Below the pieces are notes generated by a model, which saw only the letters and a program-made list of their open reading frames with translations, ran no database searches and was not told the origin of the DNA. A DNA stretch of 64,000 nucleotides from Curvularia clavata (Eukaryota), in assembly GCA_023920165.1 (NCBI GenBank), contig CP089275.1:62001-126000 (forward strand). Direction: 5' to 3'. How positions within the stretch are numbered: the first letter of the stretch is position 1; the number at the start of each line of letters is the position of its first letter. The position numbers and the translations under genes were made by a program. This document shows, in pieces, positions 16,264 to 44,010 of the stretch.

Positions 16264-18150
16264 ATGGATTCAATCGATTCCGCCAACGGACACATTTCTT
16301 TCACAAACTATGTGTCTTTCCAAGATTTACAGACTGGAATGAGTCGCGTTGGACACTACCATCTTACGAAGAAATCGATTCAGCCATTGGCCTTTTCGTC
16401 TGGGACGCCGTTGGACAATTTGTATCAAGTCATCGAAGTTGGCGAGTCCAACATTATACCTGCAGGCCCAACCTTGCCAATCTCTTCAGTTAAGATACTT
16501 CCACCTTTTACAGGACGGGACATCCTCTGCGTTGGCAAAAACTATGCTGAACATGCTAAAGAGTTCAACAGCTCTGGGTTTGATAGCTCAGATAGGGTTG
16601 ATACGCCATCTCACCCTGTGATCTTTACTAAGCGTTTCACCTCTATCGTTGCGGATGGCGATGATATCTTTCCCCACCCAGACTTTACTTCAACAATTGA
16701 CTATGAAGGCGAGATTGGTGTTGTTATTGGCAAGGCAGGGTTTCGTATTTCTGAAGAAGATGCTATGAGCCATGTGTGGGGTTATACAATTGTGAACGAT
16801 GTGACGGCACGCGAGCGCCAAAGAGATCACAAGCAGTTCTACATCGGCAAGTCGCCTGATACATTCTGCCCAATGGTGCGTAAATATTCAAGCCCCAATG
16901 GATTAGCACTGATGCTAGAGAACAGGGACCAATCGCTGTGCCGGTGTCGAAAATGGACAAGGTTTTGCGGATTCAGACATATGTCAACGGTGAGCTACGA
17001 CAAAATGCAACAACGAACGACCTCATATTTTCAATTCCATTTTTGATCAAAACAATGTCAGAGGGTCAGACATTGATGCCAGGTGATGTCCTTGCTACAG
17101 GAACAGTAAGCTGAATAATCGGCGCGTAAATGATCAAAGAATATTACTAACTTGCAAAAGCCTGCCGGTGTTGGTATCGGGAAGAAGCCCCCTGTCTATC
17201 TCGTACCTGGCGATACTGTGGTTGTCTCGGTGACTGGTTTAGGGTCCCTAATGAATCGCATCGGAAGCTTGAACTCAGACAATCCCGTCGTTGACCAGGT
17301 CAAGAAGACATCCTCCCTTCAGCTGACCAATGCTGCTAAGATAGTCGACTCGTCGTCATTGACGCAGATCAACAACAAGCCCCTCTATTACAAGAGCTTC
17401 GGTCAGACGTCAGGGTCTCCAATAGTGTTTGTACATGGCCTTGGGGGCAGCACAGAGTTTTACGACCCACTCATTCGAGCGCTAAGCCTCGAAAGGTCAC
17501 ATTCATTACATTGTTTCGACTTGGAGGGCCACGGTTCATCGCCAACATCTCCTCTCAGTACGCTTAGTATCAAATCTTTTGCTGAAGATGTAAGAGGAGT
17601 ATTTGAAAAAGCGAATATCACAACTGGTGCTACACTGGTAGCGCATTCCATGGGATGCTTGGTAGCAGCGCAATTTGTGTTGTCGCACCCTGACAAGGTT
17701 ACAAAACTCATCTTGCTCGGTCCGCCACCATCGCCACTCCCTGAAGCTGGAAGAACAGCTACCTACGCTCGTGCTGACACTGTTCGTGCAAAGGGCATGC
17801 AGTCGATCGTTGATGCGGTTGCGATGGCAGGTACATCTGGCAAAACGAAAGCTTCAAATCCTGTAGCAGTAACAGCGGTTCGACTGTCACTCTTGGGTCA
17901 GGACCCAGAAGGATACAGTAAAGCTTGTTCAGCGCTTGCTGGCGCAAAGGCCCTTGATTTCTCTGCGGTACAACCTGAGACCCTCATCATAACAGGTAGT
18001 GAGGACAAAGTCTCCCCACAACAGCTCTGTGAAAACTACGTGAAAGGACGTAACGGAAGGGCAAGTTTGCAGGTTCTGCAAGACACAGGTCACTGGCACG
18101 TATTCGAGGATCTTCAAGGTACTGCAGACGCTATCCAGACATTCTTATAG
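16264..18150 (+). CDS. Fusion of a fumarylacetoacetate-hydrolase-family domain and an alpha/beta hydrolase (~593 aa)
   Basis: FAH motifs ILCVGKNYAEH, DYEGEIGVVIG, NDVTARERQ, GKSPDTFCPMGP, GDVLATGT|PAGVG across introns 16876-16925 and 17106-17160; C-terminal VHGLGG, FDLEGHG, AHSMG nucleophile, GSED, TGHW. Confidence 0.9.
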
Positions 18151-22825: not shown

Positions 22826-24160
22826 TTAAAGAAGAACACCAACAGAGATCCAAGCTCTGCGAACAATCTGGGCTCCCGCAACTCCAAAGAGCCTGGTGGC
22901 GTGATCAACCGTGATATCAGCCCATTGCTCGAAATTGATGTCTTCCCTAGGAACCCTGGCGCGCGGGTCGGTCAGTGTGGCATACCAAATTCTACCAGCT
23001 GTCAACCAAGCCAACCCGCCGAAACCAATGGCAACCAAGTAGAACGCGCGGTTGGGGATACCTGAGGTAATATGAGGACCCTGGGCGTCGTTATACTGGC
23101 TGCTATGAGAGATCTGGGCGTCGCGGCCTAGAACAAGGTCGTCGAATGCAGTTCCTGGGTGGCAATGTTGCGAAGGGCTGAGCCCTTAATAGCAACAGGG
23201 AACAAGTTCTGTCCGGTGAGCCAATCGGCATCAGCTGCAGTCCGATTGAAGTGCCATTGCTAAACCAAGGCAGCAAAAACGTCAGAGATGGACTCATTCA
23301 ATCCTCCAGCTTGCTTTGTGTAAGCAATCCCAGCGGTGTACTGAGTAATGGCGTGAGTCAACTCGTGTGAGACGACATCAAGTGAACTCGTGAAATGATC
23401 GAATATGATACCATCACCATCTCCAAAAGCAAACTGAGAACCGTTCCAAAATGCATTGTTAAATCCAAGAGGATTGCTCGGCTCCGGATCATGATGGACA
23501 GTGACAATAGGATTTGTGCCATTACCATTGACAGCATTACGACCAAACACGGTGTAGTAGAATTGAACAGTGATGCCAACACCGTCGTAAGCGTAGTCTA
23601 CCTGTCTGTCTTTTGTTCGATGAGCCCCTTCCGCGCGAGCGAGGGTGCCTGGAAACGCGCCGCGGCCTTCTCCATCGTATATTGCACGCCTCAGCACGAG
23701 CGCTACAGCTCCAGGATCATGGGGCTCGTCCGTCGCCGCAGGACCAACGAGAGCAGTTCTCTGTTCGCGTATCTTAGCATCTGACCTCAACGTTGCCCTA
23801 GTACTCTCTCAAATCTCTTCATCTGCCAGCTCGCTCTGGGTGATGTTCTCGAGAATTCCAGGTGGGACAAAGCCTGAGCTTACAATTGGTGCTTGGGCGG
23901 CTTAAATATCAGAGCCTTCAAGCGTAGTAGGCGCTTCACTGATGATGAGGGATTGCAAACCCTTCTCGCGAAAGTCCTGGTCGATTGAGAGGGTCTGAAT
24001 AGCAGCTTGACGTGCCTCCTCTGGAGTAGCCTCAGAGTTAGCAATATGCTGGAGGACCTACGCAGGGACGAGGTGACACGTCTATAACCAAGAAGTTAGT
24101 ATGCTTCGAGAACAAGAGTCCTGAGGGTCCTGCAGCCCTAGCCTGGTGTTGATTGCACAT
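22826..24160 (-). pseudogene. Protealysin-like M4 (thermolysin family) metallopeptidase pseudogene
   Basis: NNAFWNGSQFAFGDGDG, HELTH, GGLNESISD, PHITSGIPNRAFYL; in-frame stops at 24058-24060, 23902-23904, 23809-23811 and 23260-23262; 1-bp frameshift near 23158. Confidence 0.88.
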
Positions 24161-25421
24161 GAGGAAGGTTCGTAAATACTTTCCTTAATAAACAGTTCCA
24201 AAGAAGACTTTCAATTCACAATGAACTTGAGATTTGACGATGTTTAAATGATGGTGTGAGGTGTGATCTTCGCCAACCATGCCCTTTATTCATACCTTAA
24301 TCGTTCGGACCCCGTCAGCCATGGCACTGAACTTGGCTGCAACGCCTTTCGCATCTCCAGCACATGATGTCTTGACCCAGACCAAAAGCAGCGCCTCGTT
24401 AGTCACCAAAATAACTCCTGCAGTACGCAATTCTGTTACCATTCCCCCGATCGGTTGTCTCATAGCAAAAACATGTGATAATTTTGCAGGAAATCACTCA
24501 GCAGTACTGCATTTTGCAGTCCAGCCCACTTGGCAGCCGCCGAGCTGAATATGGCCAGCTAATGGCCATGAACGACCAAACAATGAGCCAAATCTTGGCA
24601 ACGATAACCTCCAAAATGATCTGTTTCGCTGATTCAAACCTCTTTATTGTTTGGAAAATTGGCTCTGCTAGCTGAAGTAAACTTGACTACACGCAAATGA
24701 CTTCGATTTTAGGTTTTGAGGTTGCTACAGGTGGCTGTTGTACTTACTGGTCAAATATCGTCTCGTCATCAGCCTATACTTGGGCATGTGGTTATAAATC
24801 GTTATCTGGATAACTAGGTCAGAGGATGCTTGTATACTAAAGCCCTTTCCAGTCATTCTGACAGAGATCATTAGTAGCAACATCCCCTCTGACTAGTCAA
24901 GAAAGCATTCGTTCGGCTGATGACTGCTAAGCCAGTCATCCAAGTAACTATTCATTACCCCAAGACCCAAACAGCCAGATTTCCATAAAGCAGCGGAGCA
25001 AGAGCGCAGTACGCTGACTGTGTAACCAAGATTACGGAGTCCTGCATCATGTTACATAAATTATTCTGCCCTGACCTGTGTTTGGATGCCACCACCTGCT
25101 GCCTAGTAAATCTTGACCGATAACGAGCCTGAATGGAGGACAAAATTCAGCTTGGGCGGGGTTTACCAATCTGATGAATTCCTTCACTCGGTTCTGTCGA
25201 CCGGAATGCGAGTCTTTCAGCCGCAGCTGAACAACAAATGCAGATCACGCAAGCCCACTGGGACAAACCACAAACAACAACCCAAAATCTCTATTGTTAA
25301 AAAATAAAATTTCTTACGCAGCGTTATTCAAACCTGATAATTATTTCATTGCTGCTGTGCAACATTGCTCGGCCACGTCAATTTCCATACAACTAGCAAT
25401 TCTTCTCACGATTTAAATAGT

Positions 25422-26234
25422 ATGGAGTCTTATATGGTCCCCAACTTCGAAGTCAAACTTCTCCTCAACCCCTTAGTGGTTCTAGGATCTGAAGGCAAAC
25501 TCAAGAACGATGTTTTGGCAGCCTTCAATATCTCTCAGAGCACCAAGAAGATGAATGTCCAATTTGTAGACACTGCAAAGAAAGACATCTACAACAGCGG
25601 CTGGAGCCTTCGCATTCGTAAAGAAGAGAATGCCGACAAGTTCGAATTGACGTATAAGAAGCGATACTTGGTCAATCAAGGGTATTCAACCACCACCGAG
25701 GAGAACATCAACGCAGCGCTCAACACGGCCAAGCAGGACGGTTTCGACTCCACTACCTCCTACAATGCCCAAGTGGAGGTGGGATACCAGAAGCAGACCC
25801 TGTCTATCAGCCTCGATAAAAAGAGACTCGACAGTGGTTTCTCAGAATTAGAGATGCCCAAAAAACAAAAGTCGCGCGATTTCCTCATCGAAAAAGCTCC
25901 CGATAAGTTCAAAGACTGGCAAAACAAAAGTTGGGGCACTCAGCATCTCGAGACGTCTATCATCTATGGACCAGTTCTTGCAAAGCGTTCCAAAGGTACT
26001 TTCGATGAGTTCACTCTATCGATTGAAGTGTGGTAGATTCGGAAGAGCAAGGAAGATGAGACTCTGGACCCCATCGTTGAAACTTCGTTCAAGACCCCCG
26101 ATTTGATTAGGGCGTTGGATGGGCGGGCTAAGCTTCAGGATTTCCCGAAGGACAAAGACTGGTTTCTTCCTGAGGATTCTTTGAAGACAAAGCTTGTCAT
26201 GGAACGGTACGGACAAACCACTTCGCGTCTTTGA
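25422..26234 (+). pseudogene. CYTH/triphosphate-tunnel-like hypothetical protein interrupted by one premature TAG
   Basis: PNFEVKLLL, GWSLRIRK, ELTYKKR; after TAG 26034-26036 the frame continues IRKSKEDETLDPIVETSFK...WFLPEDSLKTKLVMERYGQTTSRL* to 26234; intronless. Confidence 0.65.
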
Positions 26235-26902
26235 TGGATGGTCTCATCTATGCGACTCGATGTACATAGTTGGTCATCCCGTCTGGCGTTTTTGAAAAAG
26301 GGAGATTGCCTGTTCAAAGTACAAAGCTTTACCGCGGCGACGATAGCTCAATAGACTAATCCGACCTGCAAGCTGACAAGTGTAGAAACAAAATCGGTTA
26401 AGGGGGCCTTATAAGTCTATTGATTAGTATAGAAATGAATTACCATAACATTGATCATCTGTGAGCTAGTCCACTGTTGTGCTCTAAATTGGTATCAGGT
26501 GCATCCACTGCTCTGGTAACATTGTTAAATGATATTAAACAATGACTTTCTTATGAAACTGCAGACTCGCCTGCATGATCATCTGATAAACCATATTACG
26601 GATGATATTAACCCTAGTAATCAGGACCCTTACCCAAAGTGGATCACCTACAGGCTCCTGATGCGCGGGACACCACCTCTCTCGATACCTATACCCGTGA
26701 CACCGCTGCAGGATCTTGCACGTCACAGTATCGCTTGTGTCGGAAACATTATACTTAATTATACTATATGACTATTGATCACAGCGAAAACAAAGTAGTG
26801 GGGTGGTGCTTACAACTCATTCGCCACGGAGCAGCTTGTTACCTCAATTACACACCAGTCACATGTTAGGAGCCTTCGTATGCTCTTCATAGAACTCGGT
26901 CT

Positions 26903-28633
26903 TCACAAAAAGCATCGTTCCAATGCTCTGACCACCGAAAGGTAGAACGCTTCCTGGACAGTCTCGGGCTGCCCGGTCTCTCCTACACATAAATCACTCT
27001 TCAAGCATAAAGAGGTTGCCTCAGCAAAAGCATCGCCCATTCGGAATTTGATGCGTGGTATCGTATCCAGGAAGACTTCTCTAAAGCCTTCCCCTTCGTG
27101 CGTGTGATCTGCCACAGATCGGTCGAAGATTTGCGATGCAGTCAACCAAAGACCAATTTCCATCATCAATACACCAAAGCTATACAAATCCGCTTCGTAT
27201 GAGAAAGGTTGATGACCCTGAATATTCGTGTCGGTCGAGTCGTTTTTGGTTAAGGGGAGTCCTTGATGATCTGGATGTCGGTATAGATTTTCGAACCTGT
27301 CATCTCCTACGTTCTGCGTCAATCTTTGGACTGCAAACGTTCGACTGTACTCAAAGCCTCCAATGAAGGGCTCACAAAGATCGACATTCGAGATATCATC
27401 TGCCAAGAAAAGAATGTTGTCGCTTCGGATACCCTTGTGAAGCCAACAGCCAAGATGAAGGAATAAGAGTGCCTTTGAGAGCGTTTGGATGAGCTTCAGT
27501 ACATGGCTCAGGGACTTGGCGGCAAATGTTTCATCCATAAGCAGATCGAATAGTGTAAAGACATGTTTCTTTTCGTCCAGCTTGAAGATGAGCCCGTATT
27601 GAGCATCTTCTTGGGGAGGGACGGGCATATCAACTACTGCAATACAGTCAAGGGTGCGAAACTCTTTAGGCTTACTTGCTGAATGCAGCAACAATCCCAG
27701 GTCGTGAATGTGATCGTGCAATCCGTCTTTGACAGCGGGAGACAAAGTGTTTGGAATCATTCTCCACTCGATCAGTACTTGTGTGCTAGGTATGTCATGC
27801 GCCCTAAATGTGGCGAGACTGCGTTTTCCTGTCGATCGTCCTATGGTAACCACGCTCTGCTGATGCGATATGCCTCGATGGCTCCTCATTAATTCGCGAC
27901 CACGGAGAGCCTCTGCACGATTGGCCATTTCTGAAGCCGCAGCTGTGAAGCTAGCAATGCTTCCTACTATCTCCGCTGCTAGATCTCCGGCAAAAGCATC
28001 ATGCACGGCCCTCGATGCCGCCGCATTGGGGGCTGATAACAGTTGTTGGCTGAATACCACGGGTGCAAGGGGGTCGACGGCCGGAGGCACAAAGAAGTCT
28101 TCAAGCTCCCTCACTAGCGTTGCGACTTGGTCGACCATTTGCAACCCTTTACCCCCTCGACGAGCCCATCTCCATCGTTGAATGATGTTAGCGTGGTTGA
28201 TGGAAGTAACTTCCTGTTGAAGCTCCTTCAGTTGCAGAACTCCGGGGGCGTCTGCTTGAGCAATCTCAGCCAGCTGCGCCACGCGTTGAGCCGAGCCTTG
28301 ATCCTGTGGTAGTACCGCGCTCCTGAACAGCGAAGGGAACTTCCTTTCGAAGTTTTCCATTGCAGTCAGGCGGTGTTGAATTATCAGCAAGTATCTGACA
28401 GCAAGGAATCCATACTCTCGAAAACGTCGATTTTCCAGATGTCTGCGTTCCTTGAGCCCCCAATCGAGGGCCCACGATTTGAGACGCGCCCGTGTCATGT
28501 CAAGTCTGGTTTTTATAACAACAACATCCTCACCAACTTCGTTGGCACTCTTCCACAGATCAATCACGGTAATAGTGGTGTCCACGACTTGGAAGACGAA
28601 ACCTATCACTCCAAATGCTTCCAGTCCGGACAT
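26903..28633 (-). CDS. HeLo/HET-S-like N-terminal domain + C-terminal pseudokinase (MLKL-like architecture), 576 aa, intronless
   Basis: N-terminus MSGLEAFGVIGFVFQVVDTTITVIDLW...RLDMTRARLKSWALDWGL resembles HeLo; C-terminus VLIEWR, FRTLDC, WLHKGIRSDNILF, IGGFEYSR, NLYRHPD, ADLYSFGVLMMEIGLW is a kinase fold lacking HRD and DFG. Confidence 0.85.
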   Translation of the reverse strand: MSGLEAFGVIGFVFQVVDTTITVIDLWKSANEVGEDVVVIKTRLDMTRARLKSWALDWGLKERRHLENRRFREYGFLAVRYLLIIQHRLTAMENFERKFPSLFRSAVLPQDQGSAQRVAQLAEIAQADAPGVLQLKELQQEVTSINHANIIQRWRWARRGGKGLQMVDQVATLVRELEDFFVPPAVDPLAPVVFSQQLLSAPNAAASRAVHDAFAGDLAAEIVGSIASFTAAASEMANRAEALRGRELMRSHRGISHQQSVVTIGRSTGKRSLATFRAHDIPSTQVLIEWRMIPNTLSPAVKDGLHDHIHDLGLLLHSASKPKEFRTLDCIAVVDMPVPPQEDAQYGLIFKLDEKKHVFTLFDLLMDETFAAKSLSHVLKLIQTLSKALLFLHLGCWLHKGIRSDNILFLADDISNVDLCEPFIGGFEYSRTFAVQRLTQNVGDDRFENLYRHPDHQGLPLTKNDSTDTNIQGHQPFSYEADLYSFGVLMMEIGLWLTASQIFDRSVADHTHEGEGFREVFLDTIPRIKFRMGDAFAEATSLCLKSDLCVGETGQPETVQEAFYLSVVRALERCFL

Positions 28634-29515
28634 GGTCACTCGTTGAATATGGGCCACTGATATCCTGTTCGGTTCGAGGTTGTAAGAAGCTGAGAACAAC
28701 CGCAGTGTTTGTGAGACTATTCTTCGCGAGTGCGCCGAGCTGCGGGGTTGTTGAGTGCTTTCCACTACCCCGCATCTTCAGCCGCACAAAGGCACCTGAG
28801 AGGCTATCAGAGCTATTATACCTGGGCACATGGTTACAAGATGGTTGTCTGGATAATTGGCTGAGCAGATGTTAGCGTACCGAATCCCTTTTTAGCCAAT
28901 TAGATAGAAATTATTAGTCACAAGATTCTCTCGTATTAGTTAGCAAAGGCTTTGATACCTTAAGGTCTGCTTTACCAGTTACCCAGATAGCCATATTGTA
29001 ACCACGTGCCAGCATGGAGCTATTTATGGAGATGGCGAGGTCGGATACGCTGACAACTCAGCTGAAGAACCCAGATCCAAAAGGTTCTGGGCGTCATTTT
29101 GTGATGGCCATGCCTGGAGACCTGCCAATAGCTGCGATGGGAGCAACGCGGAAGGTTTGGGCATGCAGCTCATGGCGCTGGATACTAACAACAAGCGCAT
29201 GGCCACTTCAGCCTACTTGCAGGGAAGGACTGAATGATGCACTTGGAGCTAACATCATATTTTCTGTCATAAAAGAAGGGATAATCATAAAGAGGTCACC
29301 ATCTGTAATGGTCTAAGCAACATTCACATACTGTTAACGCTATTCCTATAGGGTATAGTGTCGTTTTCACCATATATAGCTCTCTCAGCTCACACAGCTT
29401 ACGACACGCGGCTTTTTTTTCATACTAATCTGACCCTCTGATCTCCACGCTATCCCTAGTGTAAGAGTGAAGCATCCTGTCAATCAGCCTTTTTTTCTGT
29501 AATGTGTCTCAAACC

Positions 29516-32500
29516 ATGGCACAAACATCCAACACATCGCGAGATTTCACTTTCAGTCTGCATTCACTGCTTAAAACAGCCCTTGATGCTATTGGAGATC
29601 GCCCATGGCTCCAGATGGAATTGCTTGCAAATACTTGCATCGAGGAGAAGGTGTTTGAAAAAGAATCACCTCTGGGAGTCGGTGGCTACTTTTACATCCT
29701 ACGGAGCCAGCCCTCTGATCTCCTAAAATATGTCGATTCGAAGCTGAAGCCCAGCATGATCCATCGATTCACGCTTCTGCAATATAATACTGTCATCCTA
29801 CGAACGCCGAAGAGCAACCTCGATCAGCATACCGCCGGTGGTCAACGGATACTGGACTCTCTGGCGACTGAGATCCAAATACTTAAGGACGAGCGGCTCA
29901 ATAGCCACCCAAATATTGTTGGTCTTCTTGGTCTATGCTGGGAGTTTGGTGGTGGCTCGCGCCAACTTGCGATGCCTGTAATGGTCCTTGAAACTGCTGA
30001 AGCTGGCGATTTATCCACGTACACGCAACGGACGTCAAAATTAGGAGCGCGAGACAGGCTGCGTCTAGCAATACACTGCTTTGAAGGGCTTCGTGCAATT
30101 CATAATGTCGGCGTCATTCACGCAGACATCAAACCCGAGAATGTCTTGATCTTCACAGATACCAACGGCAGGCCTCACGCAAAGCTTGCTGACTTCGGAT
30201 GCTCCATCCTCTTAAACGAGGTTGATACTTTGACACGGCTGGAATCAGGAACACCGCTGTGGCAGAGTCCGAGGGTCTCTGATGCACTCAATGCGCAACA
30301 ACTCCGCGCAACTGACACATATTCATTGACGCTGGTAACTTCGCTCTTGTTGATCGGATACCCCATGTATGCTGTACTCGAAAAGGTAGTGAAATCTGGT
30401 GATGATGGAAAGTCTCTGGACGAACTCAAGGCCGAAGAAGGAGCCCTCGCTACCCTCATCTTGAGGATGCAAAGAGAAGCCGACGAATTGCAGGAGAAAT
30501 GCTTCGATAAAGATGTCACTGCACTTGTTGCAATGTTCTTCCGCGTAGGAGTGTCACTTGACGAGGAAGTAGCCATTGGTGGAACCGATCTACCTCTCAG
30601 GCTGTTGAGAGTGATGCTGCATCGTGAGATCGTAATCGCGGTAACAAGAGACGCTCGGATTCATGATACCCTAGATGAGCTTGAGAAAGATGTCTACCTC
30701 TGCCCAGGTGAGGGTCATCGGAGTCAACTAAGAAGTTAACATGTATCCTAACCATCTCAAGATATATTTGGCATAGGGTTGGGCGAAGTGGACGAGATTG
30801 CACGTTGGTACACTGCCGCGACAGACATCAACCAACAAGCAGACCCGGAGTCACCTGTGCCTCTGCTTCATCACCCACATGCAGCCGTGTCAAGAGATCA
30901 TACCAACAGAAGAAAAAATACGAAATTTCAATTTCCAAATGCAATAAACAGTGGTTCACCGTCGACGGCATATCTGAGGCGACCTCCGCTTGCGGAGAGC
31001 ATCATATCGGTGAGGACAAGTAGCTCAATCACAGTATATGCTGACAGATCTAGTTCAACCGCTATTTCAGCAGATTAAGGCGCCTACCAGCACGAGTCTC
31101 TACGGATCTTCTTGTCTCACTCCGCCAAATCGCCAACTCTGATCAGCTTGACAAAACTCTGGGTGGCCTCGCTTCTTACGAAATGGCGGCATTCATCATT
31201 GGAAGCCACAGGATAGCTCCCACTGAAGACCAATCGCTTCAAGACGAATCGCTTCAGGATGCTGGCAAATATATCCTACAGGCTGCGAGGATTGGGCATG
31301 CAGCTGCTCGTATCCATTTTGGGACAATACTGGACTGGATCGGCATTCCAAACCCCATCGACAAGGACGTTGAGGCCAGCTGGTGTTATATGTCTGCTGT
31401 GGCGGATAATCTCTGCGCGTCATCCAGATTGAAGCTTCTAAGCCCAGCGAGACACATCGAAGCGATGCAAGAAAGGGTTGACCTGGTGGCCTCCAGTATC
31501 CTGAGTTCCCTTGTCATTTCGTGCGCATCGTCGGATCAAGAATTCTCTGAAAGTGCCTTTCTTCAGGGGAGTCAAGAGCTAATGTCTTTTATTCCTGATA
31601 TCTGCCTCTATTTGGTTTGCAAAAGCTGGCATCTCAGTTTGAAGGTGGTTCTTCAACTACCTGGTATTGACGTGGATATGGATCTAGGCACGCATTCGTC
31701 GCTTCTCCTTTGTGCTTGCCAGAAGGGCGACTATGTGATTGCAAGGCTTCTCATTGAGCATTTTGCAACTCCTAAAGCAAACTCTGACGGACTCACGCCT
31801 CTACATTACCTTCACCGCTTTCCAGACGATCAAATTCTTCCAATGGCAAAGCTGCTAAAAGACGCGGGCGCGGATCTCGAGGCACGGTGCGAACTGCAGA
31901 CACAGTGTACCATCGGACAAACAGATCTGTCTGACACTCTTCTGAGTGCAACGGCACTTCTGTTTGCAGTTGCAAATCGCAATCTCCTTGCAGTCTCTGC
32001 TCTCATTTCCCTGGGCGCAGATCCATTCAGTGGCGCTAAGCCCTACGAAAAATACGACAGCGATATGTCCGCTAAGCAGAACGGCCGGATATATTCCCCT
32101 GTACATTATGCTGCACGATTGCATCTATCAGACATATTGCAGGCGATGCTGCCAGAGAACAAGAAATGTGAGCAACTCTATGACTGGATGTGCTATGAGA
32201 CAGAAACTTTGAAAGTCACACCTCTGTGGTGCGCAGTAGACTATTGGTATCAAGGTCTGTGGGATCGGGTCCTCCTTCACGGCCAGGATCATATCACGCA
32301 ATGCAAGAAGACCATCGACATTCTCCTAAATCGTGGCGCTCAAGGCCATTTTGTGTGCTGGGACACAACTACGCATGCTCGTCAGTCAGTCTTCACAGCA
32401 GCATGCCTCTTCGGACAACCTTTCGTGTTGAGCTATCTACGCACCCTGGGTATGGAGCCTTCAACCAAGAATTTGGTCATGACTTTGCAAAATGCGCTTG

Positions 32501-33861
32501 AGGCTGAGGACTCCAAAGCGATTGATTATCTACTACCCATCGCTGAAAAAAGAACATCAAGCTCAGAGCAGAAATATGAACTCAAGGCATCTATTCAAGG
32601 CCATAAAACATCGGACTACCTCGAATATCTCTACTGCATCAAAGAAAAGCTCGAAGCAAATTCCGAATCAAATCTTGGACTGAAGCTCGTTCGTGATGAG
32701 AAGCTCGCGGAAGTCATTGGGCCGGATGATGGCCGTAATATCTTTCAGCAGAAAATCTCTGGCGGTGGTTTTAAAATGACGTTCACCTTCAGGCCTGGTC
32801 CAGGAGGCCATACAGTGATGGAACCTGAGGGTGAGCCAAGCACGATGCCACCAAAAGGTACACCTCTATCATCGAACCAAGACGAGAGTCACATGTCTGC
32901 TTTCGAGCTCGCTGTCCTAGGTGGCTATGAAGATCGCGCTCGCGAGCTATTTGAGAAGGAGCAGTGCGACACGCTGTGCCGAAGAACAGATGAAAACGGC
33001 CAGACTACGACGCTCATCGGCCGACTCATTCAAAAAAGCAGGCGTTATTCAGCGGCGGACAATCACGTTTTGTTTGTGTTGAGATTGACGCCACCGAGCC
33101 ATGAAGAATTCTTTGATGCAGTAGCGGAAAGCGATTCCCCCAAAGGCCAACGCCTGACCATCCTTCATCTCGCTTCGGTGCTCCCGGAGTGGGCTCTTAC
33201 CTACACCCCAAGGGCTCCGCGTGCGATCATTTCCGAAATACTAAACAAGTACTCTGGGCCAGATCACCTCAACGCGATCACAGGTCCCGGCTCCGAATCC
33301 GTCGCAGCCCTCCACCTAGCCGTTAATTCGGGAAATCTCGACGCGTTAAAAGAACTCGAGTTTGAAGCCTTGGATTGGAACATTGTCGACGGGTCAGGTT
33401 GCACGCCCATGGATGTGGCGGGTCTGCGCCAACAGAATGTACACAATTTCTTACAGAACACACGCAAACTCTCACGCGATGAAAACCCCGCATCCTACCG
33501 CGACTCTGTCAACGAGTATCGATCCAATGTTGTTCGTATGCAAAAATTGCTAGTCAACAAGGGGGGCAGGCACATCAAGTACGGCGGGTTCATGTACCGC
33601 CGTAGTGAAGACATGTGGGAGCTAACAGATTTCCAGAGTTTTGTCTGTCGGGAGTTGCCGGTGATGGAACATCTGGAATTTATCGAAAAAAATCAGGCAG
33701 ATTGGAAGAGTCCGGCACGGAAAGCACATGTGGAGAAACTGCGTTCATGGAGTAGGCTCGAGGTTGACGAGAGTATGCTTTGTCCGCTTCTGCCACAGCC
33801 TCCAAGTAGTGCAGATGAAACAGAGTCTTCTGCAGACCATCATGAAACACAACCAATATGA
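29516..33861 (+). CDS. Protein kinase + SEL1/TPR-like helices + ankyrin-repeat protein (~1415 aa, 3 exons)
   Basis: Exons 29516-30707, 30762-31009 and 31054-33861 splice in frame (4248 nt); LGVGGY, HPNIVGLLG, HADIKPEN, KLADFG; repeats such as DGLTPLHY, TALLFAVANRN, SPVHYAA, TPLWCAV, AALHLAVNSGN, GCTPMDVA. Confidence 0.85.
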
Positions 33862-35040: not shown

Positions 35041-35649
35041 ATGCCTTCTTTCACCACCATCATCGTCGCAGTCGCTGGCTGTTCTGCTGTCGTCAATGGT
35101 GCTGCTGTCCCTTCAAAGAGCGGCCTTTCCTCTATCTCTCTCGAGGCGCGCGGCGACAGCCTCAGCAAGCGTGAGCCAGTCACTACTGCTATTCTCCTTG
35201 CGGCTGGTACCGCCGCTGTCAGCGCTGTAGTCACCGAGGCCATCGGCGCCGCTGCTAAGTTCATTGGCGACGTCTCCAATTTCGATTCCGCTCGCGAAGC
35301 CTTCACTCAGCAGACCACCAAAGAGATGATGGCTAGAAACCCCGATCCTGCTCGATTCCAAGCCGCCGCCTGCTACAATCAGGGCTTCTCGGTCGCTGAC
35401 CCCGCCAACATCGATGGACAGAATTCCGTTGAGTTCAAGCTTGGACTTCTCAACACCGACTACGAGTGCATGTATATTGCCGCTCCCAACCAGTTCTTCA
35501 CAGAGGGTGACGGTGGCTTCATCAACGTGAGTCTCAACTGCACCCAGAAACTTATGAGAACCTTAATTAACAACAAAAAACAGCTTTCATTTGAACACAC
35601 TGATCGCTGCACTTTCGATAAGGCTACTGCTGATCTTACTTGCGTCTAG
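35041..35649 (+). CDS. Small secreted cysteine-containing protein with Kex2-type propeptide (~183 aa after splicing); candidate effector or toxin
   Basis: Signal peptide MPSFTTIIVAVAGCSAVVNG, LSKR processing site, TATAAAA near 34885; in-frame 57-nt intron 35527-35583 (GTGAGT...CAG). Confidence 0.85.
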   Translation: MPSFTTIIVAVAGCSAVVNGAAVPSKSGLSSISLEARGDSLSKREPVTTAILLAAGTAAVSAVVTEAIGAAAKFIGDVSNFDSAREAFTQQTTKEMMARNPDPARFQAAACYNQGFSVADPANIDGQNSVEFKLGLLNTDYECMYIAAPNQFFTEGDGGFINVSLNCTQKLMRTLINNKKQLSFEHTDRCTFDKATADLTCV

Positions 35650-41710: not shown

Positions 41711-44010
41711 ATGCACCCTGGTCAAGCGAAAGATGTCGGCCGAAAAAGACGGCGGCCAGCCCTAGCCTGCGTGCAATGTCGTAAGAGGAAGTTACGCTGC
41801 GACCGCACGACGCCTTGCAGCAACTGTGTCCGATCCAAGGGCGCCGTATGCTCATACAGCCACCCTTTTTCAGAAGCGGATTCGCCAACACATGCAGTTC
41901 AGGTCCGAGAATCACTGTTTGTGCCGTCTTCGTCCGCAATCGAAGCAACCGCATCGCAGCGGCCATCCTCTCCACCAACCACGTCTCAATTAGAAGCACC
42001 TCGGTCAGACAGCACGAAAGTCTTAGGTCCACCGACTTTCAACACTTCGAGGACTGCAGCAACTTCTAAGAACCTCTCTACCTCTTCAAATGCACGTCCA
42101 ATCGTACCTAGACTGGTCGAAGATCAATTGGCTGAAGATCCGTTTCCAATCATTATCACAGGAGATGTTATCAACGACCCTACTAAGGATCCAGTGCTAC
42201 CTACCGTTACATCAGTCCGAAGGGCTGTAGTGGCAAAGACAAGGTACTTTGGACCAAGCCATTGGATGAGTAGTTCTGTGATGGTGAGTAAGTCTCTTTC
42301 TCTGCTAGGGTTAGAGGATAGCCTTAAGTGAGAGAGATCACAAAAGTATCTGATATACTAAACAGTCTTGTTTAGTTTCCTAGACTTTTCCGAATACTAG
42401 AAAAGCATGCCACGCCTGGACACACCGAGATTCACAAATTGCTCGCTAACGGCAAGCTTCTTGCCCGACACATAAAGCGCAGTGGCACGACAACATTTGG
42501 CAGTTCGCTCGGATCGCAATTGCCTTCGAAAGACATCGCAGATAAACTTGTCAATGCATACTTGCGAACATTCGAAAGAGTCTACCGGATCCTCCATGTT
42601 CCTTCCTTTCAGACGGATTACGACCGTTTTTGGGATTTGGGCAAAAAAAGTGACGATGTATTTATCATCAAGCTCCAGCTAACCCTAGCTATTGGGGCTT
42701 GCTTCTATGATGAGACATTCTCGCTACGATCTTTGGCTATGCAATGGATTCAGGAAGCCCAACTCTGGCTTGCCGCTCCTATCTCGGAAAAATCAAATAT
42801 GACCATCTCTGGCCTTCAAATTTTGTGTTTATTACACCTGGCAAGAGAAACAACCAATGTCAACGCAGATACGGTCTGGATCTCCTCTGGTGCTCTCTTA
42901 CGGACCGCCATGAACATGGGCCTTCACCGGGATCCCGTTCACTTGCCACCGATGTCGAACTTGCAAGCCGAGCTACGACGCCGACTTTGGAGTACCATCC
43001 TGGAGCTTACCCTCCAGTCTAGTATCGCATCAGGTGGCCTGCCATTGTTTTCTATGGATGATTTCGATACAGAACCGCCAGCTAACCTTGACGACGAGCA
43101 ACTCATGGAGCTGGAAGACGGTCCTCCTATGCCTAAGCCTTCAGAGATTCTTACCGACACTTCATTCTTAATCATTCTCCGCAACATTCTAGCTGTAAGG
43201 CTGGACATTGCCAACTTTGTTAACAGTTTTCGAAAGCCACCGGTGTACGAAGAGACGTTACGACACAATGCAGAGCTTGTAGCTGCTTGTCGCGACTTGG
43301 CCCGGGCTGTGCACTCTTACCAAAAAACCAATTCATGTCCTTCCGCTTTTCAAGTAAAGCTTCTAGAGCTCCTAACCCGTCCATTGTTTATCGCGCTTCA
43401 CATGCCATTCATGGAAAAGGCGTTGGAAAACCCGGTGTACTATTTCTCGAGAAAAACAGTTGTCGAGACGTCGCTAAAGCTCTATCGCTCATGCTGTCCA
43501 GCAGCTGTGCCCCCTGTAGGTCAATTGTCCAACTACCCTGATCAACGGGACCAAGACGACTATGTCCGGCTTTGTATATGCGGCTCTGGGCCTTTCAGGA
43601 ACATCATGATACAGGCACAGATGATGATTGCGATTGAGACTATCAGCCAGCTCGAAGAGGACACAGGTATGGGCGATTCTAGCCCGAGCATGGACCTTCT
43701 TCATGCTCTTCGCCAAATGAGAAGTTGGACCAAACAGCGTCTGTATTCGGGTGAGACAAATATCAAAAGCCACATGTGTGTTGCTGCACTTGAATCAAAC
43801 GTCAACGCCTTGCTCCAAGGTCTAGGTGACGAACAAATGGAGCAGTTGATGGCTGAAGGCATCTTGGAATCTCTACGTGAAGGTACTGACATCTTAGAAA
43901 GTTTTGTGGGATGGAGATTGTCCGACATGAATTTCGACCAACCTGGCGAAATGGACGTGGAAGAGATGTATGATGGGTCCTGGGCGTGGGACAATCTTAT
44001 TAATGGGTAG
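41711..44010 (+). CDS. Zn(II)2Cys6 transcription factor
   Basis: ACVQCRKRKLRCDRTTPCSNCVRSKGAVC; intron 42284-42375; MGLHRDP...AELRRRLWSTILEL. Confidence 0.92.

Follow-up and report, generated by a model that had tools for sequence, protein, structure and literature searches.

A head-to-head HeLo–pseudokinase and kinase–ankyrin gene pair in Curvularia clavata as a candidate fungal counterpart of the RIPK3–MLKL switch

Introduction

The known fungal HeLo executioners are activated by amyloid templating from NOD-like receptors (NLRs), and HET-S, HELLP and HELLF are switched on in this manner via a C-terminal prion-forming motif. In the available part of a 2025 review, HeLo is accepted as a relative of MLKL's four-helix bundle (4HB), the hydrophobic N-terminal helix is named as key to the membrane targeting of HET-S, and the HeLo/HELL-plus-kinase architecture receives one sentence, together with a call for broader exploration of HeLo/4HB proteins (PMC12881547). 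Human MLKL carries a VAIK motif with K230, an HGK motif (G330, K331), a GFE motif (E351) and the RIPK3 sites T357 and S358 (accessible part of PMC6013482). It is of interest whether fungi share the kinase-to-pseudokinase switch of animal necroptosis. Here we analyze a stretch of 64,000 nucleotides from Curvularia clavata (assembly GCA_023920165.1, contig CP089275.1, positions 62,001 to 126,000; hereafter the window, with coordinates counted from its first letter), in which a gene for a HeLo–pseudokinase protein lies head-to-head with a gene for a kinase–ankyrin protein.

For plant MLKLs, we know of no adjacent partner-kinase gene. Like the protein studied here, they combine a HeLo-type domain with a pseudokinase outside animals, and they are linked to immunity (Mahdi et al.; available part of 10.1101/681015), this likeness being one of description. 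With animal MLKL/RIPK3, the window locus shares a helical domain of the membrane-targeting 4HB/HeLo superfamily, a helical linker, a C-terminal pseudokinase and a dedicated upstream kinase, the last of these being a candidate in the fungal pair. With HET-S, HELLP and HELLF it shares a homologous N-terminal HeLo domain and the clustering of the gene with that of a presumed activator; however, the window protein has a 330-residue C-terminal pseudokinase where those proteins have their prion-forming motif, and its neighbor is a kinase–ankyrin protein that lacks a NOD. We consider it probable that the two genes form a regulated-cell-death module with MLKL/RIPK3 logic, of independent or very distant origin.

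Results

The HeLo–pseudokinase gene

The HeLo–pseudokinase gene occupies 26903..28633 on the minus strand as a single open reading frame (ORF) of 576 codons plus a stop, with no intron. Contigs from two sequencing runs, X1 and X4, span 26814-28923 without a joint over the gene. These runs come from two studies, and a further run used below, X9, from a third; their RNA label is guessed, and we take all three to be transcript-derived because their contigs contain skips bounded by GT..AG and almost disappear between the two genes. Direct reading and translation of the minus strand gave WLHKGIRSDNILF, which includes HKGIRSDN at 27439..27416; GFE is encoded at 27358..27350 and is followed by YSRTFAVQRLTQN, and VLIEWR corresponds to residues 286-291 (27778..27761). 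A preliminary description, made from the letters of the window, had reported these three motifs, the first two with coordinates; residues and coordinates proved exact, all three motifs lying within the one open frame. Beyond 26814, at the 3' end of the gene, the X1 and X4 contigs continue into sequence that does not match the window there (397 letters in X1 and 259 in X4). This loose end, which the two runs share, could be an intron of the 3'-untranslated region, a strain difference or an insertion.

The N-terminal part of the protein is a HeLo domain (residues 6-182, 28088..28618, minus strand; Pfam PF14479 at E 8.8e-13, its 49 bits being well above the cut-off of 23.2). A profile built from an alignment of 36 relatives (A1, described below) matched the HET-s/HET-S structures 2wvo (E 2.5e-20) and 2wvn (8.5e-20) over positions 2-212. 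The AlphaFold2 model, also built from A1 (predicted template modeling score 0.82, mean predicted local distance difference test (pLDDT) 76.5), contains an N-terminal helix at residues 3-28, and the N-terminal 25-residue stretch has a mean Kyte-Doolittle hydrophobicity of 1.36, ranking second among 551 such stretches. The protein is therefore predicted to possess the hydrophobic N-terminal helix that is the membrane-insertion feature of HeLo domains, insertion itself being putative. The HeLo domain is followed by a helical linker (residues 183-245, 27899..28087, minus strand; model helices at 190-193, 196-200, 204-213, 218-238 and 242-245), which is like the MLKL brace by position only, and then by a DUF7580-type kinase fold, the pseudokinase domain (residues 246-576, 26906..27898, minus strand). 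The window protein thus has the MLKL-type order of 4HB/HeLo domain, linker and C-terminal pseudokinase.

A fungal family with a dead active site

A search of 5.8 billion proteins with the window protein returned 66 relatives, 36 of which were selected for alignment A1. All relatives with a named source are fungal: Penicillium samsonianum (80% identity), Rhexocercosporidium (63%), many Fusarium species (about 56%), then Dothideomycetes and Sordariomycetes, and a few Basidiomycota. Many of the 66 carry precomputed matches to PF14479 and to PF24476 (DUF7580), a family that Pfam annotates as being of unknown function. With the gathering score of DUF7580 at 27, two orthologs of 58-63% identity reach 27.8 (P0006) and 27.1 bits (P0005); the window protein itself, however, gave no DUF7580 match at E<=0.1 in a Pfam scan. 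The family is larger than these close relatives. When residues 268-576 were used as the query of an exhaustive HMMER search, 2,808 representative clusters were recovered at E<=1e-3, including 1,046 at E<=1e-10, mostly of 550-630 amino acids with the domain at the C-terminus, and among 75 evenly sampled representatives DUF7580 was matched in 56, HeLo in 48 and Pkinase in 30.

Nine residues of the domain (W397, H399, K400, S404, N406, G426, F427, S430 and R431) are invariant in the 36 homologs of A1. For a broader view of conservation, we aligned the window protein (P0001) with the best 150 of the 2,808 representatives, and all counts given out of 151 refer to this set. In the catalytic-loop remnant (HKGIRSDN, 27416..27439, minus strand), in which HKG stands for HRD, H399 is found in 146, K400 in 120, S404 in 137 and N406 in 136 of the sequences, and position 401, the site of the HRD aspartate, is occupied by Gly in 96, Ser in 21, Ala in 15, Asn in 8 and Asp in 5. 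At the DFG site, G426 is present in 146 sequences (Asp in 1) and F427 in 143, and position 428 is Glu in 90 and Asp in 46. The beta3 strand VLIEWR (27761..27778, minus strand) has R291 where the family has lysine: the family consensus is V-x-V-E-W-K, with Lys at position 291 in 117/151 and Arg in 13/151, and E289 is found in 131/151. The alignment indicates that these motifs are conserved and are not the product of chance.

Judged by its residues, the window protein is a pseudokinase, with R291, G401 and G426 replacing the beta3 lysine, the HRD aspartate and the DFG aspartate, respectively; the earlier proposal of a catalytically dead domain is in agreement with all three. Because an HRD aspartate is found in only 5 and a DFG aspartate in only 1 of the 151 sequences, the family itself appears to be an old pseudokinase in which both catalytic aspartates were lost early and the beta3 lysine was mostly kept. 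The clade of the window protein appears to have lost the lysine later as well, having Arg, Met or Ile in its place. Hence the absence of lysine from beta3, which the preliminary description had noted, is true of the window protein and its clade, but not of the family.

That description had also pointed to Ser/Thr residues in the activation loop after GFE, and such residues are indeed conserved. Within GFEYSR (27341..27358, minus strand), which comprises the DFG replacement and the start of the activation segment, position 429 is Tyr in 106 and Phe in 29 sequences, position 430 is Ser in 106, Thr in 8 and Ala in 32, and R431 is present in 147, so that the S430 position is Ser/Thr in 114/151. 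A second position, T439 (27317..27319, minus strand), is Ser/Thr in 121/151 (Thr in 103, Ser in 18), and the residue that follows it is Glu in 100 and Asp in 16. In the model, the part of the activation segment that holds T439 is a loop predicted with low confidence (pLDDT < 50 at residues 439-441). T432 is poorly conserved, with Pro in 73/151. The segment ends in YRHPD (27269..27283, minus strand), which we read as the APE position, with Y451 in 142, R452 in 126, H453 in 146 and P454 in 146 of the 151. S430 and T439 are thus the candidate phospho-acceptors.

The kinase fold and the specificity of the MLKL resemblance

In the AlphaFold2 model, the N-terminal helical domain and the helices of residues 190-245 are followed, from residue 249, by a beta-rich N-lobe and a helical C-lobe. 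A comparison of the model with 48,161 representative chains using VIA-align gave 266 chains with Z>=8; the best 50 of these are kinases, with Z 17-20.3 over residues 247-576, led by BRAF (4mnf, Z 20.3, root mean square deviation 3.5, 245 residues aligned), IRAK1 (19.5), Csk (19.3), the TYK2 pseudokinase (19.2), CRAF (19.2) and Roco4 (19.1), and also including RIPK3 (18.7), IRAK4 (17.8), RIPK2 (17.6) and IRAK3 (17.4). Foldseek returned at least 500 matches at E<=0.001, and the best 48 of these were kinases throughout, with CDK12, IRAK4, CDK9, TYK2 and JAK2 at the top (E about 1e-7). Against PDB sequences, the C-terminal part of the A1 profile matched BRAF (3e-9), IRAK4 (1e-8, positions 346-542), KSR1 (9e-8) and RAF1. 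With the single sequence as query, Pfam Pkinase remained below its gathering score on the window protein (16.2 bits vs 31.7), as did PK_Tyr_Ser-Thr (18.2 vs 23.1), the whole protein as a PDB query gave marginal matches only, and residues 385-460 had a sole PDB match at E<=10, to a MAP kinase (3oz6, E 0.66). Among the matches listed by the ESM Atlas, the neighbors are the family's own fungal DUF7580/HeLo clusters, followed by generic kinases. Taken together, the model and the profile matches indicate that the C-terminal domain has a protein-kinase fold. We take the BRAF, IRAK1/4, KSR1 and RIPK3 matches to belong to the tyrosine kinase-like (TKL) group, and the nearest solved relatives overall to lie in the TKL/TK part of the kinome.

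MLKL was absent from the best 60 of the 1,163 PDB sequences found with the family profile at E<=1, from the best 48 of the at least 500 Foldseek matches, and from the best 50 of the 266 VIA-align entries, in which the lowest listed Z was 17.0. Furthermore, the catalytic-loop tail [IL]-[KR]-S-x-N is a general TKL signature. The preliminary description had held that the motifs closely echo MLKL. Although the MLKL features it named, HGK, GFE and the RIPK3 sites, agree with the available part of PMC6013482, the likeness is confined to a few residues and does not appear specific, since the best listed matches are BRAF, IRAK1/4, KSR1 and RIPK3.

Like animal MLKL, the window protein lacks the HRD aspartate, has GFE for DFG and carries Ser/Thr in the activation segment. 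However, it has HKG where MLKL has HGK, it lacks the beta3 lysine that MLKL keeps as K230, the conserved Ser/Thr of its family occupy +2 and +11 relative to the Glu, as against +6/+7 for the MLKL phosphosites, and its closest solved kinases, among the matches listed, are RAF and IRAK. Most simply, the HxG and GFE features common to both reflect parallel decay of a TKL-like catalytic core, and they do not in themselves speak for direct descent.

The kinase–ankyrin partner gene

The neighboring kinase–ankyrin gene (29516..33861, plus strand; 1,415 codons) consists of three exons (29516-30707, 30762-31009 and 31054-33861) separated by two introns (30708-30761 and 31010-31053), with an optional third intron at 33579-33636. 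In the unspliced DNA, the Pkinase domain is read within an ORF at 29504-30739 (plus strand), and an ankyrin ORF of 892 amino acids lies downstream on the same strand. Several observations join the two. The X1 and X4 contigs form blocks at 29298-30705, 30760-31008 and 31053-33578, between which they skip 54 and 44 nt at GT..AG borders, and X9 shows the first of these skips too; GTGAGG donors are present in the DNA at 30708 and 31010; and splicing out the introns leaves 1,415 uninterrupted codons up to a single terminal stop. The Fusarium oxysporum protein ENH71271.1 (P0138; 1,220 amino acids) aligns across both parts, with residues 1-359 matching 29774-30916 at 48% and residues 378-1218 matching 31048-33753 at 50%. 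Moreover, the annotation combines kinase and Ank in 21 of the 25 proteins homologous to the ankyrin part (966-1,458 amino acids, mostly Fusarium 'CAMK DCAMKL kinase' proteins). The kinase and the ankyrin repeats are thus encoded by one spliced transcript. The third skip (33579-33636, GT..AG) was found in X1 only, where the unspliced form is also present; its removal would shorten the protein to 1,330 codons, and the alignment with the Fusarium homolog follows the reading frame of the unspliced form.

The Pfam Pkinase part (29855..30517, plus strand; PF00069, E 6e-25) contains HADIKPEN (30119-30142) and DFG (30191-30199), and the ankyrin region (31645..33420, plus strand) is covered by Pfam stretches at 31645-31884 and 33295-33420 (Ank_2 E 1e-16, Ank_4 E 7e-10). 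The 5.8-billion-protein search found only six close homologs of the window kinase ORF. In all seven sequences, H202, D204, K206, N209, D226, F227, G228 and the alphaC glutamate E119 are invariant. At the beta3 lysine position (VILR), the window partner has R96 (29801..29803, plus strand), and the Lys three residues beyond it is not kept in Fusarium; distant partner kinases, by contrast, read VAIK, VAVK, VVVK or IALK in six of seven alignments, the seventh having a gap.

By profile, the nearest solved kinases of the partner are ULK1/2, DCLK1, CaMK1, AMPK, RIPK1 and LRRK2 (E 1e-13 to 1e-11), and no specific affinity to RIPK3 was seen. No NOD (NACHT/NB-ARC) was found in the partner, in which Pkinase and Ank were the only families below E 0.07 and no Walker A motif was present, and a regular-expression test found the RHIM core [IV]Q[IVLC]G in neither protein. 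The partner therefore differs from RIPK3 in being fused to ankyrin repeats, in lacking a RHIM-like I/VQxG tetrad and in being encoded next door to its presumed target. The earlier proposal that a neighboring kinase targets the pseudokinase is borne out insofar as a kinase gene is the conserved neighbor; this gene, however, encodes a kinase–ankyrin protein of 1,415 codons, not a lone kinase, and R96 weakens the case for simple phosphorylation.

Divergent pairing and its conservation

The two genes share a divergent intergenic region (28634..29515), in which the transcript contigs end at 28923 and resume at 29298. Because contig depth almost vanishes at 28933-29169 (1.88 in X1 and 1.85 in X4), these are two divergent, head-to-head transcripts, and contigs of both genes occur in the same two transcript-like runs, X1 and X4.

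The arrangement recurs in other fungi. Consecutive accessions pair the two genes in Rhexocercosporidium (KAH7303884/KAH7303883) and in F. oxysporum cubense race 1 (ENH71270/ENH71271), as do consecutive locus tags in F. gaditjirri (FGADI_10707/10706), F. anthophilum (FANTH_1597/1596) and F. oxysporum II5 (NOF04DRAFT_11237/11236); the two accessions of F. oxysporum conglutinans are five apart. In nine more Fusarium species both proteins report a longest contig of equal size, which is a weaker proxy of linkage. For P. samsonianum, the source of the 80% ortholog, no separate kinase protein was found among the homologs of the window kinase; the ankyrin part, however, has a 78% homolog on a Logan contig whose length, 40,724, equals that of a contig with a member of the ortholog cluster. 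The identities of kinase homologs and HeLo–pseudokinase orthologs run in parallel (91/90, 67/70, 58/63 and 54/58%).

Distant loci were sought by scanning metagenome contigs for the catalytic-loop pattern. The pattern matched 204 times; a relative is encoded in 163 of these cases, and 80 loci were retained, all of <=35% identity. They form 61 clusters at >=95% nucleotide identity, and in 31 clusters the sequence extends 3 kb or more upstream of the estimated start. A divergent kinase homolog is found 58-1,634 nt upstream in 14 of these 31 loci and elsewhere in the flanks in another 4. An ankyrin-part homolog is present in 18 of the 80 loci, lying beyond the kinase match in those compared by coordinates. 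The distant partner kinases score 85-130 bits against the window kinase, whereas the best database match outside the six close homologs scores 55 bits, a comparison that is indicative only, as the database search was word-limited. Across distant ascomycetes, the two genes are thus inherited as a pair.

In a few distant loci (L013/L014, L030 and L070), the HeLo–pseudokinase gene has the kinase homolog on its downstream side instead of divergently upstream, L013/L014 also having an ankyrin-part homolog; the pairing thus seems to survive rearrangement. Separately, the beta3 lysine has been lost from both partners in the Penicillium/Rhexocercosporidium/Fusarium clade (27761-27778 and 29801-29803 in the window), and distant pairs keep it in both. 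This joint loss may reflect co-evolution of the two nucleotide pockets.

Discussion

The module that we consider probable would work as follows. The ankyrin repeats would be the sensing or regulatory part and the attached kinase domain the transducer; the pseudokinase would be a switch that keeps HeLo inactive until the partner acts on the activation segment (GFEYSR...T439-E/Q...YRHPD), whereupon the freed N-terminal helix of HeLo would damage the membrane. In this proposal we infer HeLo toxicity, autoinhibition by the pseudokinase, interaction with and action by the partner, phosphorylation as the signal, and the identity of the acceptor residue. A broader claim, which we put forward tentatively and hold to be possible but not probable, is that the pair represents a widespread and compact fungal counterpart of RIPK3→MLKL, in which an ankyrin sensor kinase switches a head-to-head HeLo–pseudokinase executioner via its activation segment.

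Several observations weigh against the proposed module. Neither candidate acceptor is universal, S430 being replaced by Ala in 32/151 and the T439 position being neither Ser nor Thr in 30/151. The flanks of 13 of the 31 usable distant loci show no kinase, and many members of the family may therefore work without a kinase–ankyrin partner. Between the window and contigs from strains of the same organism, differences are confined to 6/2,110 and 17/4,184 positions, with no indication of the great allelic diversity that typifies allorecognition genes. A literature search that covered neither subscription journals nor supplements found no experiment on the family and no account of the kinase–ankyrin partner, and it did not find the term 'DUF7580' in papers. 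Finally, the canonical beta3 lysine of a RIPK3-like active kinase is not present in the window partner: R96 takes its place, and Arg is found at this site in 7/7 close homologs and in 27/27 homologs that include the segment. Exchange of the beta3 lysine for arginine is the classic substitution used to make a kinase dead, and it is found in mammalian KSR. Because R96 replaces this lysine, robust phosphotransfer by the partner kinase of the window clade is doubtful, notwithstanding the invariant HxD, Asn, DFG and alphaC Glu.

The partner's beta3 arginine is also the reason why an allosteric mechanism is a serious rival at the window locus, even if we judge it unlikely overall. Here the same two proteins would form the same module, but the partner kinase would bind the pseudokinase as a RAF/KSR-like heterodimer, and a change in the ankyrin repeats upon sensing would release HeLo. 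The Lys-to-Arg exchange throughout the window clade, the lack of the lysine (Arg, Met or Ile) from the pseudokinase of that clade, and the presence of BRAF, CRAF and KSR1 among its best solved matches would all fit such a mechanism. KSR–RAF and IRAK indeed resemble the pair both in providing the best profile and structure matches among those listed and in the partnership of kinase and pseudokinase; they differ in that the fungal-only family has no RAS/MAPK or death-domain context and that KSR–RAF/IRAK have no HeLo fusion. On the other hand, the remaining catalytic residues of the partner are all invariant and distant partners keep a VAIK-type lysine, which argues that catalysis matters in the family, and the conserved Ser/Thr in the flexible activation segment fit a role as phospho-acceptors as well. 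A quite different possibility, that the active site of the C-terminal domain itself is atypical but functional, would be compatible with N406 in 136/151, the beta3 lysine in 117/151 and an HRD-site Asp in 5/151; we regard it as highly improbable, given that the window protein lacks the beta3 lysine, the HRD Asp and the DFG Asp together, and that the DFG Asp is missing in 150/151.

Could the protein be a true MLKL homolog, descended from a fused ancestor in common with animal and plant MLKL and having inherited HKG/GFE? The domain order is the same, and the pseudokinase matches kinases of the TKL group, to which MLKL belongs too. HeLo is related to the MLKL four-helix bundle (PMC12881547, available part), and both proteins have GFE and lack the HRD Asp (PMC6013482, available part). 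We nevertheless think such descent quite unlikely: the best matches, among those listed, are RAF, IRAK, KSR, RIPK3 and JAK or the family's own fungal clusters, the loop reads HKG and not HGK, MLKL keeps its VAIK lysine and has its sites at +6/+7 as opposed to +2/+11, and all source-named relatives are fungal. It is also conceivable, although in our estimation improbable, that there is no death module and that the HeLo–pseudokinase is a non-lytic membrane scaffold or adaptor of an ankyrin-kinase pathway (e.g., in stress or development). The literature searched holds no functional data on the family; contigs of both genes occur in the same runs, where a constitutively lethal protein would be tolerable only if tightly inhibited; and plant MLKL has been connected with immunity without host cell death (preprint 10.1101/681015, available part). 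However, HeLo is well conserved and retains the hydrophobic N-terminal helix that is key in HET-S, and the gene-cluster layout of the HeLo/kinase pair is shared by known fungal death modules (both from the available part of PMC12881547).

If the broader counterpart proposed above is real, fungi would join animals and plants in having kinase-gated HeLo/4HB executioners, a pattern that would represent either an ancient eukaryotic invention or threefold convergence. The locus is a concrete, expressed and conserved two-gene system that can be tested in tractable fungi, its family is large, with 1,046 representatives at E<=1e-10, and it offers named candidate residues (S430 and T439 in the pseudokinase; D204, D226 and R96 in the partner). 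It further suggests a likely function for Pfam DUF7580 and for the Fusarium 'CAMK DCAMKL kinase' proteins.

Other genes in the window

Just downstream of the 3' end of the HeLo–pseudokinase gene, a 223-amino-acid ORF (25365-26036, plus strand) has a marginal CYTH match (E 6.5e-5), its 23.3 bits barely exceeding the cut-off of 23.2. Farther along, an ORF fragment at 23263-23790 (minus strand) matches the catalytic domain of thermolysin-type M4 metallopeptidases (E 1.6e-22) and probably represents a single exon of a more extensive gene. A DUF7888 protein (35041-35649, plus strand; E 8.7e-53) and the N-terminus of a Zn2Cys6 transcription factor (41711-42331, plus strand; E 4.4e-10) are encoded downstream of the kinase–ankyrin gene. 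Adjoining ORFs at 16264-18150 (plus strand) encode a fumarylacetoacetate-hydrolase domain and an alpha/beta-hydrolase; since the second ORF begins with the tail of the FAA_hydrolase profile, they may be a single spliced gene.

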